A stretch of 64,000 bases of DNA from Candidatus Woesebacteria bacterium GW2011_GWB1_39_10. GTDB lineage: Bacteria; Patescibacteriota; Microgenomatia; UBA8517. Location: NCBI GenBank assembly GCA_000993205.1, contig LBVU01000002.1, positions 117,079 through 181,078 on the forward strand, given 5' to 3'. The notes under the pieces were generated by a model, which searched no databases, had not been told where the DNA came from, and saw nothing but the letters and a program-made list of their open reading frames with translations. This document shows positions 57,022 through 64,000 of this stretch, one piece after another. The translations under genes and the position numbers were made by a program. The first letter of the stretch is position 1, and the number at the start of each line of letters is the position of its first letter.

Positions 57022-57051
57022 AGCTTTTCACTTTTCGCTCTTCACTTTTAG
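57022..57051. repeat. AAAGTGAAAAG-family repeat (reverse complement) encoding the C-terminal KLKVKSEK of RNase HII and forming an imperfect hairpin with 57000-57021
   Basis: agcttttcacttttcgctcttcacttttag opposite agctaaaaagtaagaac. Confidence 0.65.
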
Positions 57052-57720
57052 TTTGTTGAGCCAAGTGGCGACGAAGGCTTTCCTGTGCAATTTAGTCGCT
57101 CCATATTTTTTGATGGCATTTTGGTGTTCTTTTGTCCCATACCCTTTGTTTTTACCCCATTTGTAAACTCTAAATTTTGGATTTTTGGAGATTTTTACCA
57201 TTAGTTTATCCCGATAGACTTTGGCGACAATTGAGGCTGCTGCGATTGAAATCGATTTCGTATCCCCTTTAATAATGGCCTTTTGGTTTTTTCTTCTTAG
57301 ACTCCTTACGTAAGGTATGAAGAAGGCGTCAATGAGTAGATACTCGATACTGGATACTTTGATACTCACACTTTTGATCGCTTTACGGAAAGCTATTTCT
57401 GAGGCTTTTTTTATCCCAAACCGATTTATTTGTGCCACACTTGCCTGTCCGATTCCAATCGCAAGTGCATTTTGCCGTATCCATTTATCTGCAACTTTCC
57501 TCTGTCTTGGAGTAAGTTGTTTTGAGTCGTTGATAATTATTTTGCGATTACCTTTCAAGACCGTGTCTTTAAAGGTGGTTATAGTATTTCTGTCAAAGAC
57601 AACACATCCTGCCACAATTGCGCCGGCAAAACAGCCTCTACCTACCTCATCCATACCGGCAACAACCTTAAAACCTTTATTCCACAGCTTCTTTTCAAAG
57701 GAGAAATCCGGAAGTGTCAT
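57028..57720 (-). CDS. rnhB: ribonuclease HII
   Basis: VAGMDEVGRGCFAGAIVAGCVVF catalytic N-terminus; contains in-frame SSIEYLLID insertion and KVKSEK tail. Confidence 0.88.
   Translation of the reverse strand: MTLPDFSFEKKLWNKGFKVVAGMDEVGRGCFAGAIVAGCVVFDRNTITTFKDTVLKGNRKIIINDSKQLTPRQRKVADKWIRQNALAIGIGQASVAQINRFGIKKASEIAFRKAIKSVSIKVSSIEYLLIDAFFIPYVRSLRRKNQKAIIKGDTKSISIAAASIVAKVYRDKLMVKISKNPKFRVYKWGKNKGYGTKEHQNAIKKYGATKLHRKAFVATWLNKLKVKSEK
57339..57367. repeat. GATACT(C/G/T) heptamer tandem x4 in frame inside rnhB
   Basis: gatactcgatactggatactttgatactc. Confidence 0.75.
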
Positions 57721-58103
57721 TTATTTATCTTTTGCTTATATTTTTCGGGGTATGCGTCAAAAAGCCTATCGGACAAGACGCCAATCATTCTATTCTTCTC
57801 TACGGGAAGAATGGTTCCTAAAGCAACAGCCGTCCTCACATTAGGAAAACTATTCACAATCATAGTTGCCAAGGTTTTATGTCCTCGACCTGCAAGATAA
57901 TACTGAAAAACTGAATCCTTCAAACTCATTGTTTGTTTTTCCTCTATTGGCTGCCAAAAATCACCATCGGCCACACCAAAAACATCTTCGGGAAGAAATT
58001 CTTTTATCCCAACCAAAACAGATTCCCATGACCCCTCTTTAGGCCGATAGCCCTTTGCCTTCTCTCTTTGGAATCTTGTATTCCTTGTCCTTTCTTTGTC
58101 CAT
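57717..58103 (-). CDS. hypothetical protein (128 aa)
   Basis: ORF overlapping rnhB start by 4 nt. Confidence 0.45.
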   Translation of the reverse strand: MDKERTRNTRFQREKAKGYRPKEGSWESVLVGIKEFLPEDVFGVADGDFWQPIEEKQTMSLKDSVFQYYLAGRGHKTLATMIVNSFPNVRTAVALGTILPVEKNRMIGVLSDRLFDAYPEKYKQKINK

Positions 58104-58146
58104 CGCCTTGATTATACCACCTGTAATCTGCTACAATTTAGCTTCG

Positions 58147-58332
58147 ATGAAACAAATTTTCAGCTTCTTTTCTGAGGTCAAAATCGAGCTTTCCAAGGTA
58201 ACCTGGCCCAGACGCGACGAGGTTATAAAGCTCACCTTGATAGTATTCGCCGTCTCGGCTATAATTGGAGCCTACGTCGGAGGTTTAGACTATTTGTTCA
58301 CAAAACTTCTAGCGTTAATTGTCACAAAATAA
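58147..58332 (+). CDS. secE: preprotein translocase subunit SecE (start taken at MKQIF)
   Basis: ELSKVTWPRRDEV motif then single TM helix; secE-nusG-rplK context. Confidence 0.85.
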   Translation: MKQIFSFFSEVKIELSKVTWPRRDEVIKLTLIVFAVSAIIGAYVGGLDYLFTKLLALIVTK

Positions 58333-58335
58333 TAT

Positions 58336-58962
58336 ATGCCTAACGATCAAAAGCCAGAGGATATAACTCAGATTGCCGAACGTGGAACCGGAAAAAAGAA
58401 AATTCCGGGACATATGATTATTGCGGTAACTGAAGATCCCAAGGCCAAATGGTATGTGGTTCACACGTCCTCGGGACATGAGGTACGCGTTATGGAAACC
58501 TTGCGCCAAAGGGTTGAGACTATGAATTTGGTGGGTAGAATCTTTGAAATGCTTGTCCCCACCCAAGACAGAGTCATCATTCGCGGAGGTAAAAAGGCCA
58601 CCATAAAGGAAAAGATTTTCCCGGGATACCTTCTGGTTAAGATGATTTTGGACGACCCAACTTGGTTAGCCGTTCGCACTACAGCAGGAATCACGGGATT
58701 TGTGGGCGCAGGCAATAATCCCACACCTCTATCAGAAATCGAAGTTGCCAACATTCAAAAGTTCGTAAGCTCCCCAGCCCCCAGATTCAAAACAAAGTTT
58801 ACAGTTGGAGAGGCAGTTAAAATTACCGACGGGCCTTTCAGCGACTTTCTTGGGACAATTCACGAAATGGATGACGAAAAAGGAAAAGTTAAAGTATTGG
58901 TAAGCATTTTCGGACGAGAAACCCCGGTTGAGCTGGACTTTCTACAGATCCAGAAGGTATAA
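58336..58962 (+). CDS. nusG: transcription termination/antitermination factor NusG
   Basis: KWYVVHTSSGHEVRV NGN domain and C-terminal KOW (GEAVKITDGPFSDFLGTI). Confidence 0.92.
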   Translation: MPNDQKPEDITQIAERGTGKKKIPGHMIIAVTEDPKAKWYVVHTSSGHEVRVMETLRQRVETMNLVGRIFEMLVPTQDRVIIRGGKKATIKEKIFPGYLLVKMILDDPTWLAVRTTAGITGFVGAGNNPTPLSEIEVANIQKFVSSPAPRFKTKFTVGEAVKITDGPFSDFLGTIHEMDDEKGKVKVLVSIFGRETPVELDFLQIQKV

Positions 58963-59071: not shown

Positions 59072-59500
59072 ATGGCCAGAAAAGTAAAAACAATCGTTAA
59101 GATCAATTTAAAGGCGGCTGAGGCAACCCCAGCCCCTCCTGTGGGAACAGCGTTGGGACAACACGGCGTTGCCATTATGGAGTTTGTTAAACAGTATAAT
59201 GATAAGACTAAAGATCTTAAAGGTCAGGTTGCTCCGGCTGTAATCACGATCTACGACGACAGAAGCTTCACTTTTACTATCAAAAGAGCACCTGTTGCCG
59301 ATATGATCAAAAAAACCTTGGGTATAGAAAAAGGTTCCGGTAAAACCCCAAGGGAAACCGCAGGAACTCTAACCCGCGAAATGGTCAAAAAGATTGCCGA
59401 GGAAAAGTTGGAAGACTTAAATACTAAAGATGTAGAAGCTGCAATGAAAATCGTAGAAGGAACAGCAAGAAGTATGGGAGTGACGGTAGCGTCATCCTGA
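59072..59500 (+). CDS. rplK: 50S ribosomal protein L11
   Basis: PAPPVGTALGQHGVAIMEFVKQYN conserved L11 N-terminal domain. Confidence 0.93.
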   Translation: MARKVKTIVKINLKAAEATPAPPVGTALGQHGVAIMEFVKQYNDKTKDLKGQVAPAVITIYDDRSFTFTIKRAPVADMIKKTLGIEKGSGKTPRETAGTLTREMVKKIAEEKLEDLNTKDVEAAMKIVEGTARSMGVTVASS

Positions 59501-59569: not shown

Positions 59570-60406
59570 ATGGGAAAAACTAAAACAGCATTTGTAAGTG
59601 AGACCCCGACTTCCGTCGGGGCAGGCAAAAACGAAAAGAAAAGTCACCTTGCTCACAAAAGTGAGGAGGGTAAAGTTCATGTCGCCGGACTTAAGGGTGG
59701 TCAAAGAGTTAAAGTGGTTGAAGCCGCCCCAACCGAGGAAGCACCTATTTTTGAGGAAGGAAAAGCGGGTTCTCTTGAAGTCTCGAAAAGTGGTGAGCGA
59801 AGTCGAACCAGAGTCGAACGGGTCAGGTCCGTAAAGTATAAAGACGCTAAAAAGAAAATCGAGCCGGGTAAAACTTATGCAATAGAAGCGGCAATTAAAC
59901 TAGTTAAAGAGGCGTCATATTCCAAATTTGACGGAACAATGGAAGCTCACCTAGTACTCAAAAAGGCCGGAATTTCGGCCCAAGTCACCCTCCCCCATGC
60001 CGCGGGACGCGAGAAAAAAGTAGAAATTGCGTCAGATGAAACAATAGAAAAATTAAAAGCAGGAAAAATCGATTTTGATATTTTGATTGCAACCCCGGCA
60101 ATGATGCCGAAACTTGTTCCCTTTGCCAGACTTTTGGGACCTAAGGGACTTATGCCAAACCCCAAAAACGGAACGCTTGTAACGGACCCAAAAAAAGCCA
60201 ACAGTTTCTCTGCAGGAACAGTCACCATCAAAACCGAAAAAGAGGCTCCACTTATTCATACAGTTGTCGGGAAAAATAGCCAGAAAGATGAAGAAATTGC
60301 AGACAACCTTAAAGCAATTTTCAAAGCTTTCGGAGGAGACAAACAAATTGTCAGAGCTTTTATTAAATCAACAATGAGCCCAAGTGTTAAAGTGGAGGTT
60401 AAGTAA
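59570..60406 (+). CDS. rplA: 50S ribosomal protein L1 with about 80-aa N-terminal extension
   Basis: Core from KTYAIEAAIKLVKE...VTLPHAAGREKKV matches L1; preceding Lys/Glu-rich extension. Confidence 0.88.
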   Translation: MGKTKTAFVSETPTSVGAGKNEKKSHLAHKSEEGKVHVAGLKGGQRVKVVEAAPTEEAPIFEEGKAGSLEVSKSGERSRTRVERVRSVKYKDAKKKIEPGKTYAIEAAIKLVKEASYSKFDGTMEAHLVLKKAGISAQVTLPHAAGREKKVEIASDETIEKLKAGKIDFDILIATPAMMPKLVPFARLLGPKGLMPNPKNGTLVTDPKKANSFSAGTVTIKTEKEAPLIHTVVGKNSQKDEEIADNLKAIFKAFGGDKQIVRAFIKSTMSPSVKVEVK

Positions 60407-60596
60407 TTTTTCCTTTGTCTCCAAAAATTGAAGTAAGTAACTCCTCTTTCAAATTGTCCGAAATCGGCAGTTTGCGAACCCATTCTGCAATTTTACTAGC
60501 CGAATCTTCAACGAAATTGGGAGATTTACCCGGAAATTCTACATGAACAACCCCTTTTATTCGACTAGATTTTTTATCTTTTTCTATTGCACTCAT
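60399..60596 (-). CDS. small hypothetical protein (65 aa), co-oriented downstream of the 276-aa unknown
   Basis: ORF only; 4-nt overlap with upstream ORF. Confidence 0.35.
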   Translation of the reverse strand: MSAIEKDKKSSRIKGVVHVEFPGKSPNFVEDSASKIAEWVRKLPISDNLKEELLTSIFGDKGKIT

Positions 60597-61423
60597 TTTT
60601 TGTCAGGCAAAAGGCCATACGCTTTTGCGTCGTATACAAACGTATCTATTGAGTTAGTGTTTGTTATTCTACCATAACAGTTCCTAACGGATTCCGAAGC
60701 ATACCCCGGAACAATGACTATAAATGGTCTTATAACTGCATTTCCCGTGTCTTGCTCACCCATTATCCAATGTGTTTGCCTAACCGTCGCCAAAAGAGTC
60801 CTGACATGCTCGGGCCCTACCTGACCATGAGTATCCAGGTTGGGATCGTCAGCTCTGAATATCTCAGGATTAATTACACTAGAATGTGACTTAAGTTGAA
60901 TAACACGAACAATTTCTTTGCCTTCTTGATCTCTTTCCCCGAACTTTAATATCAAATCAACCTTCCCCTTAACATCCATCGTAGCCGGGGCAATTATATC
61001 CAAAGCGCGAATTGCGACTCCGGCTTTCCTTGCTAAATCTATAAAAGTCACGATAGAGAAAGCCCCATACAAATGGTCTCTTACAACATCTTTAGAATTC
61101 GGTAAGCCATTAACCACTGAATCTTTTTCTGCGGTTGAGAACAATGCTTTGTCCAACAAGCTTTCAATTGCTAACCCCTGTCCTGTCCCAGCGAAATCTT
61201 GGGAAAAAATGTCAATTACGGCGGCTAATGAACCTTGTAAACTTGCTAATTTTTCCGGGTGACGATTGCCTTCTTTTTGATGAAGTTCGGAAATAAGTCC
61301 ATTTTTAAAATCAGTGCCAATCCACTTTAAAAGTATGTCATGCGATTTGCTTTGCAAACGTTCCTCTTTCGGCATCTCTAAAATCTGTCTTATGGGAACT
61401 TCAGCAATGGCGTCCAACATCAC
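60593..61423 (-). CDS. hypothetical protein (276 aa) inserted on the opposite strand between rplA and rplJ
   Basis: Uninterrupted ORF; no family recognised (weak nuclease-like VDLILKF...RVIQLK segment, not a canonical PD-(D/E)xK). Confidence 0.5.
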   Translation of the reverse strand: MMLDAIAEVPIRQILEMPKEERLQSKSHDILLKWIGTDFKNGLISELHQKEGNRHPEKLASLQGSLAAVIDIFSQDFAGTGQGLAIESLLDKALFSTAEKDSVVNGLPNSKDVVRDHLYGAFSIVTFIDLARKAGVAIRALDIIAPATMDVKGKVDLILKFGERDQEGKEIVRVIQLKSHSSVINPEIFRADDPNLDTHGQVGPEHVRTLLATVRQTHWIMGEQDTGNAVIRPFIVIVPGYASESVRNCYGRITNTNSIDTFVYDAKAYGLLPDKK

Positions 61424-61534
61424 CTAATTTAAAGGTATTTAACAAGAAAATACAACCAGGTGAAAGTTCCCTGCCTTGTTTTCTCGCCACTCCTATAGTA
61501 CAATTCCCCCTCGTAAGCCATTTTTTAATTAAAT

Positions 61535-61759
61535 ATGAAAGATAATATCGAAAATGAGGCTAGAAAAAGAGACTTGTTGAGGCTTGCCAGAAATATTAGC
61601 TTGGCTGAAACAGGAAAACTTGGATCGGAGATTGAAACCGGCTACCCGGAGGGTGAAATACCCGGCGAAAGCCCAAGAGTTAAACAAATACGCCTAGCGC
61701 GATCAAGGCAAGAATTGCTTGAGTATAAACCGGAAGGTGAATCTTCCCCTGTTGCATAA
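61535..61759 (+). CDS. small hypothetical protein (74 aa), uncertain
   Basis: ORF only, upstream of rplJ leader. Confidence 0.3.
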   Translation: MKDNIENEARKRDLLRLARNISLAETGKLGSEIETGYPEGEIPGESPRVKQIRLARSRQELLEYKPEGESSPVA

Positions 61760-61890
61760 ACATATTAGTTTGATATAATTACTCTTGTCCTAAGAAAGTG
61801 CGTGGCGAGCGTAGTCGAACCATAAATCGCGCTGGAGGAAGCTAATTTCTTCAGTGTTGGCGTACCCCTCCCCCTCTTTAGACAAAAAAT
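61760..61890 (+). promoter_or_regulatory. Untranslated leader upstream of rplJ, candidate L10(L12)4 autoregulatory leader
   Basis: 130-nt non-coding stretch with GC-rich segments directly 5' of rplJ; structure not verified. Confidence 0.3.
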
Positions 61891-62412
61891 ATGCTTAAGG
61901 CTCAAAAGATTACATTCGTAGAAGATTTAACCGGAAAACTGAAAGATGCAAAGTCGTTGGTTCTTGTTAACTACTCCGGACTTAACGTCAAAGCTCAACA
62001 AGACCTAAAAGAGAAGCTAAACGCGGCAGGAGCCCGTATGGTGGTAATTAAAAACACCCTGCTTAAAAGAGCCGGCAAGGCGGCAAAAATCGACGATGGC
62101 ATGCTTGAAGACTCCATCCTCCAAGGTCAAACAGCCTTGGTTATATCAAATGAAGACGCTGTTGCCCCTATTCAGATTTTGGGGAAGTTTGCAAAAGAGA
62201 ATGACGTACCAAAGTTTAAAGTCGGGATTATCGACGGAATGTTCCAGGATACCGTTTCTCTAACCAAACTTTCCACCCTTCCGGGACGAGATGTTCTTTT
62301 GAGCCAGCTTTTGGGAAGCTTAATGTCACCTATGTATGGATTGGTGGGAACTCTAAATGGACCAATGCAGAAATTAGTGTATATTTTGGACCAAAAATCC
62401 AAATCGAGCTAA
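61891..62412 (+). CDS. rplJ: 50S ribosomal protein L10
   Basis: Typical L10 sequence and position before rplL. Confidence 0.9.
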   Translation: MLKAQKITFVEDLTGKLKDAKSLVLVNYSGLNVKAQQDLKEKLNAAGARMVVIKNTLLKRAGKAAKIDDGMLEDSILQGQTALVISNEDAVAPIQILGKFAKENDVPKFKVGIIDGMFQDTVSLTKLSTLPGRDVLLSQLLGSLMSPMYGLVGTLNGPMQKLVYILDQKSKSS

Positions 62413-62439: not shown

Positions 62440-62847
62440 ATGGCAGAAGAAACAACAAAAGCAAACAAAGCAGTAGAAAAATTAGTTGAAGAAATTGCAA
62501 AACTTAGTGTTTTGGATCTTTCAGAACTAGTTAGCGCACTTCAAGAAAAACTTGGAGTTTCTGCTATGCCAGTAGCAGCAGCCGCGGCACCCGCCGCCGT
62601 CCAAGAGGGCTCTGGCGAGGCAAAGGACGAAGGTGGTCTTAAAACAGTTGTCATGACAAATGCGGGAGGAAACAAAATTGGTGTAATCAAAGCTCTTCGG
62701 GAGATTAACCAAAACTTGACCCTCATGGATGCAAAGGGCATGACAGAAGCGGTTCCTGCAGAAATTCTTAAGGACGCCAAAGCAGAAGATGCTAAAGCGG
62801 CCGAGGAAAAATTGAAAGCGGCAGGTGCCACAGTAGAATTGAAATAA
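62440..62847 (+). CDS. rplL: 50S ribosomal protein L7/L12
   Basis: Ala-rich hinge AAAAPAAV and C-terminal AGATVELK. Confidence 0.93.
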   Translation: MAEETTKANKAVEKLVEEIAKLSVLDLSELVSALQEKLGVSAMPVAAAAAPAAVQEGSGEAKDEGGLKTVVMTNAGGNKIGVIKALREINQNLTLMDAKGMTEAVPAEILKDAKAEDAKAAEEKLKAAGATVELK

Positions 62848-62935
62848 ATTTCAATCTACGTGGTAAACAACAGTCGAGCTTAAATAATCAAATTATTGTT
62901 ACTCAGTAATTCGTTACTTAAGCTGACAACAAATT

Positions 62936-62962
62936 ATCCCGCTTAAAATGCGGGATTTTTTG
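62936..62962 (+). terminator. Rho-independent terminator after rplL (ATCCCGC-ttaaaat-GCGGGAT then T6)
   Basis: Read directly. Confidence 0.7.
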
Positions 62963-63007
62963 TGCCCGAAAAAATACATTACTTCTCAATTATCCTTATC
63001 TGTTAAG

Positions 63008-63035: not shown

Positions 63036-63536
63036 CTATTTGCGATATAATTCACTATTCATTTCAGCTATTTCTTTATCTATTACCTCTTTTTCCGACA
63101 TTTTCTCAATTAGCTCTTTGGGAGTTTTATCTTGTTTCTCTGCTACAGCATATTGCCCAGTGGCTAACAGTAATTCCGGTAAATGAAATTCAATCGGACC
63201 ATGTGGAATTTTGGTTGGTTTGCCCCATTTTAATGGCAACTTCGCGATCGCCTTCTTAAATCCATTTCCACCTTTTTCCAACCAAATGTTAACTTTATTC
63301 ACAGTTCCCAAACTTGAATGAGTTTCCCGAACGACTTCACGCTGATGTTTGCCAGAGAGCAATAGTTTGGCTATACGAAGCCTTATTGAAAGAATTTTTA
63401 TTTCGTTGGCGGTAAGCAGATCCTCAAGGAAATCCGCTATTTCAGAAGCATTTCTTAAGTCCTTAAATGAGTTTACCAAATCAAACATCAAACTTACCTT
63501 TTCCTCGTTTCCTAATTTTTCCGCTTTCTGTTTCAT
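63036..63536 (-). CDS. TrpR/YerC-YecD-family DNA-binding protein with C-terminal extension
   Basis: FLEDLLTANEIKILSIRLRIAKLLLSGKHQREVVRETHSSLGTVNKVNIWLEKGG matches the Trp-repressor-like family pattern. Confidence 0.7.
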   Translation of the reverse strand: MKQKAEKLGNEEKVSLMFDLVNSFKDLRNASEIADFLEDLLTANEIKILSIRLRIAKLLLSGKHQREVVRETHSSLGTVNKVNIWLEKGGNGFKKAIAKLPLKWGKPTKIPHGPIEFHLPELLLATGQYAVAEKQDKTPKELIEKMSEKEVIDKEIAEMNSELYRK

Positions 63537-63720: not shown

Positions 63721-64000
63721 TTATGCCAGGAGGTAATTTATAACTTTTTGTGCCACATTTATCTTAGTTGCAGATTCAAACCCCTCAAATTGACAGGATC
63801 TATTAACCTCCAAAACTATCCAGTTACCTTGGGTGTCCCGCATAAGATCTAAACCACAGTATTCCAATTTAAACAGTTTAACGGTATTCACAGCTACCGA
63901 ACTCGCTTCTGAATCTTCCCCTATTTTATATTCTTCTACCAGTCCGCCCTGAGAAAAATTACTTAGAAAATTCCCTGGTTTAGCAATCCTCTTCATAGCG
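63721..64000 (-). CDS. C-terminal part of a RimK/GshB-like ATP-grasp ligase (gene continues beyond window end)
   Basis: GLDLMRDTQGNWIVLEVNRSCQFEGFESATKINVAQKVINYL matches the ATP-grasp C-terminal subdomain. Confidence 0.6.
   Translation of the reverse strand, partial: AMKRIAKPGNFLSNFSQGGLVEEYKIGEDSEASSVAVNTVKLFKLEYCGLDLMRDTQGNWIVLEVNRSCQFEGFESATKINVAQKVINYLLA

Follow-up and report, generated by a model that had tools for sequence, protein, structure and literature searches.

In model bacteria, the rplK, rplA, rplJ and rplL genes form two operons of ribosomal-protein genes, one with its promoter at rplK and the other at rplJ; Bradyrhizobium and Actinomyces are known to have other genes between rplKA and rplJL (PMC12993453). 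In Bacillus subtilis, rplJL possesses its own sigma-A promoter and a leader responding to L10(L12)4 (PMC4538822). The DNA studied here, a stretch of 64,000 nucleotides (nt) hereafter called the window, originates from a groundwater Woesebacterium, Candidatus Woesebacteria bacterium GW2011_GWB1_39_10 (contig LBVU01000002.1). Between rplA and rplJ it carries two adjacent genes of the opposite strand, encoding proteins of 276 and 65 amino acids (aa), which together form the cassette discussed below. An earlier inspection of the letters alone (the sequence-only reading) had taken rplK-rplA-rplJ-rplL to be near-universally contiguous, a premise that the separations already reported in other bacteria do not bear out. 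As in those bacteria, extra genes lie between rplKA and rplJL and neither operon is lost; here, however, the interval is hypervariable across a candidate phylum-level lineage and houses a recurrent, site-faithful antisense tenant.

Phage T4 offers another point of reference with its seg and mob genes, free-standing homing endonuclease genes located between conserved genes. At the protein level, the PD-(D/E)xK superfamily comprises D...QxK variants such as the Mrr-type enzymes, herpesvirus UL24 and the bunyaviral cap-snatching endonucleases.

On balance, and with slightly better than even confidence, we regard the pair as an exchangeable two-gene accessory cassette, putatively of the conflict type, which occupies a variable islet at the natural border of two operons and has so far been met only in Candidatus Woesebacteria. 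New aspects are an unannotated Woesebacteria two-protein family with a confident model and no significant neighbour of solved structure, and the rplA-rplJ operon boundary as a recurrent variable islet in this lineage. The Candidate Phyla Radiation (CPR), or Patescibacteria, have tiny genomes in which defence or addiction systems are seldom recognised. Should the cassette prove to be a nuclease conflict module, the defence repertoire of the CPR would gain a new type, and the cassette would exemplify an exchange of cargo that ultra-conserved flanking genes drive.

Two conserved genes on the opposite strand

Both minus-strand open reading frames (ORFs) are genuine genes, because they display a conserved family, invariant residues, a confident structural model and detection by a hidden Markov model (HMM) of the small partner. 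Residue numbers below refer to the 276-aa protein. A word-indexed protein search with this large protein returned itself and one relative of 53% identity, and an exhaustive HMMER search seeded by that pair gave 59 matches, 57 of them full-length (about 260-310 aa). The family amounts to 57 clusters at 50% identity among the 1.84 billion representatives searched, and every member with a source name belongs to Woesebacteria. With a 53-sequence profile, the word-indexed protein search gave three proteins; a metagenome scan gave four loci. In NCBI and UniRef, the entries for the cassette carry the name 'hypothetical protein' and the source Candidatus Woesebacteria (KKQ92536.1, UniRef100_A0A0G0X710). 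GCA_000996545.1 (LCAO01000001.1) contains the region with 100% identity; the retrieved copies of the window's allele are 100% or 99.9% identical to it, and the next allele is too diverged for a ratio of nonsynonymous to synonymous substitutions (dN/dS).

In the 53-sequence alignment, D150, D156 and K178 are invariant, while G120, T126, Q176, P239, G251 and F262 are conserved at 90% or more. The AlphaFold2 model built from this alignment has a mean local confidence (pLDDT) of 94.4 and a predicted template-modelling score (pTM) of 0.92, and supersedes a poor model from two sequences (pLDDT 49). It predicts a helical domain at the N-terminus (about residues 10-135), followed by a C-terminal alpha/beta domain that holds the invariant residues and has helices (H) and strands (E) in the order H147-153, E157-164, E170-180, E187-190, H204-221, E229-239 and H256-268. 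In the model, D156 stands immediately before strand 157-164, and Q176-L-K178 lies inside strand 170-180.

The large protein has no match in Pfam, NCBIfam, PADLOC, PHROGs or the PDB. Pfam finds no recurrent family among 53 family members, PADLOC-DB 2.0 gives no match for the window proteins and six different single-member matches among those 53, none recurrent, and a PDB sequence-profile search with the family returned PDZ noise only. Remote homology, from which the sequence-only reading had hoped to learn the nature of this protein, delivered a Woesebacteria family of 57 clusters and neither a recognised domain nor a significant neighbour of solved structure.

The small gene is equally recurrent. 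An ORF of 51-79 aa lies directly 3' of the large gene, overlapping it or at most 14 nt away, in 14 of the 14 loci examined. The 65-aa protein is 49-51% identical to its counterpart in the relative L001 (L-numbers designate the loci of relatives), with the common core VHVEFPGKSPNF..DS.SK.AEW..KLPI. An HMM built from the partners of 12 other loci, excluding the window and its nearest relative, recognised the 65-aa ORF with E=3.6e-10, as its only significant match among the 1,087 ORFs of the window, and leave-one-out partner HMMs recovered the partner at every locus (E from 5e-4 to 2e-14).

The layout of the locus, in the numbering of the window, is as follows.

58096-58332, plus strand: secE
58336-58962, plus strand: nusG
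59072-59500, plus strand: rplK
59570-60406, plus strand: rplA, ribosomal protein L1, 278 aa (Pfam PF00687, E=1.7e-24)
60399-60596, minus strand: small partner gene, 65 aa (ORF list, partner HMM)
60593-61423, minus strand: large cassette gene, 274-276 aa (57-cluster family, AlphaFold2 model)
61424-61534: non-coding spacer within the variable segment, no ORF
61535-61759, plus strand: 74-aa ORF within the variable segment, coding status unsupported
61752-61779, plus strand: predicted rplJL promoter (sequence, aligned hexamers in L006 and L007)
61787-61890, plus strand: rplJ 5' leader, with an L10-leader-type motif at 61787-61840
61891-62412, plus strand: rplJ (Pfam L10, E=8e-24)
62440-62847, plus strand: rplL (Pfam L12_N and L12)
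62936-62956: terminator-like hairpin 3' of rplL

The ORFs that the sequence-only reading had described between rplA and rplJ, which are 1,484 nt apart, are all present with the positions and strands it had assigned. The ATG of the 65-aa ORF overlaps the TGA of the 276-aa ORF (ATGA), which suggests translational coupling of the small gene to the large one, and its stop overlaps the final 8 nt of rplA, tail to tail. Three in-frame starts are available to the large gene (GTG 61423, ATG 61420 and TTG 61417), and public calls give 275 or 274 aa. The G+C content of the interval, 0.36-0.44, is unremarkable beside the 0.37-0.48 of the ribosomal genes on either side. The putative promoter of the cassette must lie on the minus strand within 61424-61534. 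This spacer shows no blastn homology to L006 or L007, the RNA fold of 61424-61893 is not more stable than that of shuffled sequences (z=-0.96), and Rfam has no match within the rplA-rplJ interval.

Site fidelity and turnover in a variable islet

An L1-based scan of GTDB species representatives yielded 44 loci, L007 among them, mostly titled Woesebacteria, Microgenomates or Patescibacteria. Of the 14 loci with the cassette family, two are on contigs too short to be placed. In nine of the 12 informative ones (the window, L001, L007, L050, L052, L062, L064, L065 and L068) the pair lies antisense in the rplA-rplJ gap, and in three (L051, L055 and L058) it is found outside. In eight of the nine site-faithful loci, that is, in all those where this flank is on the contig, the small gene adjoins the rplA stop or overlaps it; tail-to-tail overlaps of 4-17 nt were noted in L050, L052, L064, L065 and L068. 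The cassette is found at rplA-rplJ even in hosts with an L1 identity as low as 44-60%. The same site and orientation in at least nine divergent lineages therefore designate a long-standing tenant, and not the single insertion that the sequence-only reading had envisaged.

Constancy of the site goes together with turnover of its content. Between the window and L007, a complete Woesebacteria chromosome (CP066686.1) whose L1 is 87-91% identical to that of the window depending on the method, L1 and L10 are each 91% identical, against 25% for the large cassette protein. L064 and L068 repeat this picture (L1 85%, L10 88%, cassette 25%), and the window and the more distant L001 are 72% identical in L1 and 53% identical in the cassette. 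L006, with an L1 92% identical to that of the window, has no cassette at the locus. When the window is compared with L006 and L007 by blastn, homology (about 86%) ends at the rplA stop (60406/60407) and restarts at 61784 for L007 or 61882 for L006.

Cassette-bearing lineages are scattered in a neighbour-joining tree of L1 and L11. Among 39 co-oriented GTDB Woesebacteria and Microgenomates loci having both rplA and rplJ, a single one holds the cassette, and a scan of GTDB genomes with peptide patterns taken from the cassette itself did not confirm any locus. Judged from these comparisons, the behaviour of the cassette is that of an allele which can be exchanged or dispensed with, and not that of a core gene, and we infer allele replacement and loss between close relatives. 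The conserved flanking ribosomal genes would act as homology arms, through which recombination would replace or delete the cargo. Very fast sequence evolution in place of allele replacement would be less parsimonious, since close kinship of the hosts does not go with greater similarity of the alleles.

The cassette is one of several occupants of this gap. Across Woesebacteria loci, the rplA-rplJ distance ranges from 64 to 5,028 nt, and the gaps of other Woesebacteria contain an AbiEii toxin (Pfam E=2.9e-14), found in L019 and L037, and an IS1595 transposase (E=4.9e-36). Further cargo consists of an AAA_14/DUF4143 ATPase, HD-domain, TrpRS-like and 23S-rRNA-intervening-sequence-like (IVP-like) genes, membrane proteins and low-complexity ORFs. 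The AbiEii, IS1595, AAA_14/DUF4143 and IVP-like genes are located at 6818-7471 in L019, 10381-11142 and 6774-7934 in L037, 2681-3568 in L022, 6254-6886 in L008, 6834-7388 in L018 and 3-371 in L001. In the window, the variable islet corresponds to 60407-61751, its left border being the rplA stop and its right border the -35 element of the predicted rplJ promoter. The suspicion that a selfish or defence gene might hide here was well placed: the gap of this lineage holds AbiEii, IS1595, AAA/DUF4143 and HD genes, and the cassette is polymorphic among relatives.

On a side note, the IVP-like gap genes are of the four-helix-bundle type, and L001 has one in addition to the cassette. In several relatives, ORFs of 82-133 aa on the same strand, shortly before the rplJ promoter (L006 7236-7484, L019 7705-7989, L021 6798-7199), end in similar (T/D)NLP(I/L)(P/S) residues; they may represent a fast-evolving family of small proteins, or chance.

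Possible functions of the cassette and competing explanations

Judging from the model, the large protein may be a metal-dependent, nuclease-like enzyme of the PD-(D/E)xK type, a proposal that we consider evenly balanced. Alignment and model agree with the motif placement of this superfamily, with D156 at a strand start and Q176-x-K178 in the following strand; an additional invariant D150 and the predicted order helix, three strands, helix, strand are further points of likeness. The protein differs from the superfamily by the lack of any significant match, by a large N-terminal helical domain without known counterpart and by its obligate small partner. The VDLILKF...RVIQLK segment, in which the sequence-only reading had seen a weak nuclease-like clue, turns out to be the conserved core of the family (D156 and K178 invariant, Q176 nearly so); the nuclease likeness itself found no significant match. 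An Mrr-like identity was considered and dropped: PF04471 gave no match, and hhalign assigned a probability of 0.4% to the family profile against Escherichia coli Mrr, a single-sequence comparator of low power.

A toxin-antitoxin-like or defence-like role is the one we propose, although it is rather less likely than not. In such a module, the large protein would be a phosphodiesterase of the PD-(D/E)xK type using D150, D156 and Q176-x-K178 on a strand hairpin, its N-terminal helical bundle would serve as a regulatory or targeting part, and the translationally coupled small protein would be its obligate partner, as inhibitor, antitoxin or specificity factor. The architecture of type II toxin-antitoxin systems, with adjacent co-directional genes that are coupled or overlapping, is found in 14 of 14 loci, toxicity and neutralisation being putative. 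Like toxin-antitoxin and abortive-infection modules (for instance AbiE, type IV), the cassette is a compact bicistron with overlapping stop and start, has a patchy distribution and rapid turnover, and occupies an islet shared with AbiEii. Unlike them, it has no homology to a known toxin, antitoxin or PADLOC model, its small gene is downstream, and it shows no DNA-binding antitoxin domain.

The orientation of the cassette invites a further proposal. The plus strand shows no site resembling an intrinsic terminator between rplA and rplJ, and rplKA transcripts may therefore run antisense through the whole cassette. Because of this, and of the conserved tail-to-tail abutment to rplA, one can imagine a new nuclease-based defence or addiction system, from a structural family without solved relative, whose expression would be inversely coupled to transcription of the ribosomal operon. 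Strong rplKA read-through would silence the cassette during growth, and a collapse of transcription (phage shut-off or starvation) would release it. We consider this very unlikely.

Several observations weigh against an accessory, conflict-type nuclease cassette. The absence from 38 of the 39 loci was scored at rplA-rplJ only. No relatives of the cassette are present in viral contigs, phage records or plasmids, and the interval 60407-61751 of the window has no transposase, integrase or bounding repeats, other than short repeats at chance level. Positional conservation in hosts with 44-60% identical L1 could reflect a function tied to ribosomal operons, and very fast sequence evolution could, less parsimoniously, stand in for allele replacement. 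Neither an antitoxin nor a DNA-binding domain can be recognised in the small partner, which has no Pfam, NCBIfam or PADLOC match either, and the charges of the large and small proteins show no consistent complementarity. As for structure, a hint towards a nuclease comes from six of the 11 best BFVD matches, which are fragments of bunyaviral L proteins or herpesvirus UL24/UL76 and thus PD-(D/E)xK folds, but all are non-significant, with E of 0.26-1.6 and template-modelling (TM) scores of at most 0.26, and no significant sequence, profile or structure match links the large protein to any nuclease.

The alternative that survives best, although unlikely, is a free-standing homing-type selfish nuclease with a helper or immunity protein, which would cut the empty rplA-rplJ junction of related genomes and be copied in by recombinational repair, the conserved ribosomal genes providing the homology. 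Its constant site and orientation between highly conserved essential genes, its patchy distribution, the incongruence of host and cassette and the D...D...QxK motif would all suit such an element. Presence and absence at one site among close relatives (L006 against the window) provide the polymorphism expected of homing, and other tenants of the gap, the 23S-rRNA-IVP-like genes and the IS1595 transposase, are probably selfish. The cassette resembles seg and mob of phage T4 in being intergenic among conserved genes, present or absent at one site, with a phylogeny off the host tree. It departs from them in having two genes, no known homing motif, very old divergent alleles and some copies off-site. 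By sequence it belongs to no known homing-endonuclease family (no LAGLIDADG, GIY-YIG or HNH Pfam match), and the apparently translationally coupled two-gene architecture would be unusual. Moreover, recent homing predicts near-identity, whereas alleles of close hosts diverge like random family pairs (25%), and three family members lie outside the ribosomal locus.

The cassette could also be a lineage-specific housekeeping or ribosome-linked factor, such as an RNA-processing or ribosome-assembly nuclease with its cofactor, fast-evolving, repeatedly lost and retained beside rplKA and rplJL on functional or regulatory grounds. For this one can cite nine of 12 contexts at the ribosomal locus in hosts with 44-60% identical L1, and a cassette divergence that scales with host divergence in five host pairs (L1 72, 60, 54 and 47%, against cassette 53, 38, 32 and 31%). 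Unremarkable G+C content, the lack of mobility genes or repeats and the absence from phage and plasmid collections would also fit. However, the cassette is missing at the locus from 38 of 39 co-oriented GTDB loci, one of them with a 92%-identical L1, and two pairs of close hosts have alleles of 25% identity. It also runs antisense to ribosomal genes, and its family has only 57 clusters at 50% identity. The sequence-only reading would have been refuted by related genomes that share the insertion together with signs of a conserved lineage-specific housekeeping factor: the insertion is indeed shared, but its patchy occurrence, at odds with the host tree, speaks against such a factor. We rate this alternative as distinctly improbable.

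A one-off recent insertion of foreign DNA in this genome only (a transposon, prophage remnant or integrative element) would account for the complete difference between close relatives across the interval. Synteny contradicts it, since at least eight other lineages have this gene pair in the identical position, pointing the same way, and no integrase, transposase, tRNA or flanking repeats were detected; with a flank-like composition and no viral or plasmid relatives in addition, we regard this as highly improbable. The lack of a tRNA concerns the vicinity of the variable segment.

The 74-aa ORF deserves separate mention. Public gene finders predict it, yet its sole database match is itself, it has no Pfam, NCBIfam or PADLOC match, and no counterpart occurs in the rplA-rplJ gaps of other loci, so that its status as a gene is unsupported. 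Of the three ORFs in the sequence-only reading, it is the one that lacks support, the 276-aa and 65-aa ORFs being real genes. Four short direct repeats had suggested that its region arose from the rplA 3' end by duplication and decay; this was rejected, the local alignment score being reached by 17 of 500 and 131 of 500 shuffles. That the ORFs are chance frames within a long rplJ leader or spacer that does not code for protein is scarcely credible, since it applies solely to this ORF (no homologue but itself, no domain match), is ruled out for the other two by family, invariant residues, model and partner HMM, and sits ill with a conserved leader motif that starts only at 61787.

Probable autonomy of rplJL, and neighbouring genes

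The sequence-only reading supposed that an insertion would uncouple rplJL from the rplKA promoter, a concern that loses its object with a conserved predicted promoter and a covarying leader motif in front of rplJ. The predicted promoter combines a -35 element TTGCAT (61752-61757), a 16-nt spacer and a TG-extended -10 element TATAAT (61774-61779). Promoter-like hexamers are aligned with it in L007 (TTGATT/TATACT) and L006 (TTGACC/TATACT); a generic promoter scan scored it under threshold.

About 105 nt before the rplJ start begins the leader motif of the window (61787-61840), GTCCnAAGAAAG-stem-loop-TAAATC-stem'-GGAGG. Its lineage form, GTCCnAAGA(A/C)AG-stem-loop-TAA(G/A)(T/C)C-stem'-GAGG, is found in 42 of 46 loci, and four of the five base pairs of the stem show compensatory changes among 26 sequences. 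As in the L10 leader RF00557, a conserved motif with a covarying stem lies directly upstream of rplJ, and one of the 11 relatives scanned, L013, reaches the gathering threshold of this Rfam family (48.4 against 44). The version of the window differs in being short, in lacking the terminator hairpin and in having no Rfam match: RF00557 was not found at E<=1 over 8 kb, nor at E<=10 over 161 nt. Leaders can be seen, for example, at 7577-7703 in L013 and 8672-8716 in L007. Those of the window and L007 lack the terminator hairpin present in many relatives, and the mode of regulation, attenuation or translational control, may therefore differ within the lineage.

With cargo bounded by the rplA stop and the rplJ -35 element, rplJL should remain autonomously expressed and regulated by L10, the activity of the promoter being predicted. 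The flanking ribosomal operons look intact and their boundary looks permissive. Even if the cassette were not a conflict module, the broken rplKAJL cluster would do no harm, since rplJL has a predicted promoter and an L10-type leader of its own.

Other features of the region can be recorded. The best Pfam and NCBIfam stretches of L1 (278 aa) cover only residues 154-277 or so, and the rplA_bact equivalog scores 129.6 bits for a cutoff of 216.3. The protein appears to carry a Lys/Glu-rich N-terminal extension beginning with MGKTKTAF, which looks like a lineage-specific trait; this start motif retrieved most of the 44 related L1 genes. Downstream, rplL is not followed by rpoB and rpoC, and the window has no ORF above 906 aa at all. 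The hairpin at 62936-62956 coincides with a weak Rfam match to Trp_leader (62891-62963, E=0.036) and is followed by a TrpR-family gene on the minus strand (63036-63536, Pfam E=1.1e-13), also present near rplL in L006, L015, L042 and L068.

Several ATP-grasp (RimK-like) genes adjoin rplL in the genome of the window and in two distant cassette-bearing relatives, possibly forming a conserved locus for peptide ligation or modification. Such clusters occupy 63721-63996 and beyond in the window, 2909-7697 in L003, 2267-6345 in L050 and 1-1035 in L068, and a seven-transmembrane (7TM) transglutaminase-like gene stands beside them in the genome of the window and in L050. On the other side of the ribosomal genes, a 128-aa ORF without Pfam match (57717-58103, minus strand) lies upstream of the RNase HII gene (57028-57720), which it overlaps, and is annotated as a gene in all public copies of the contig.

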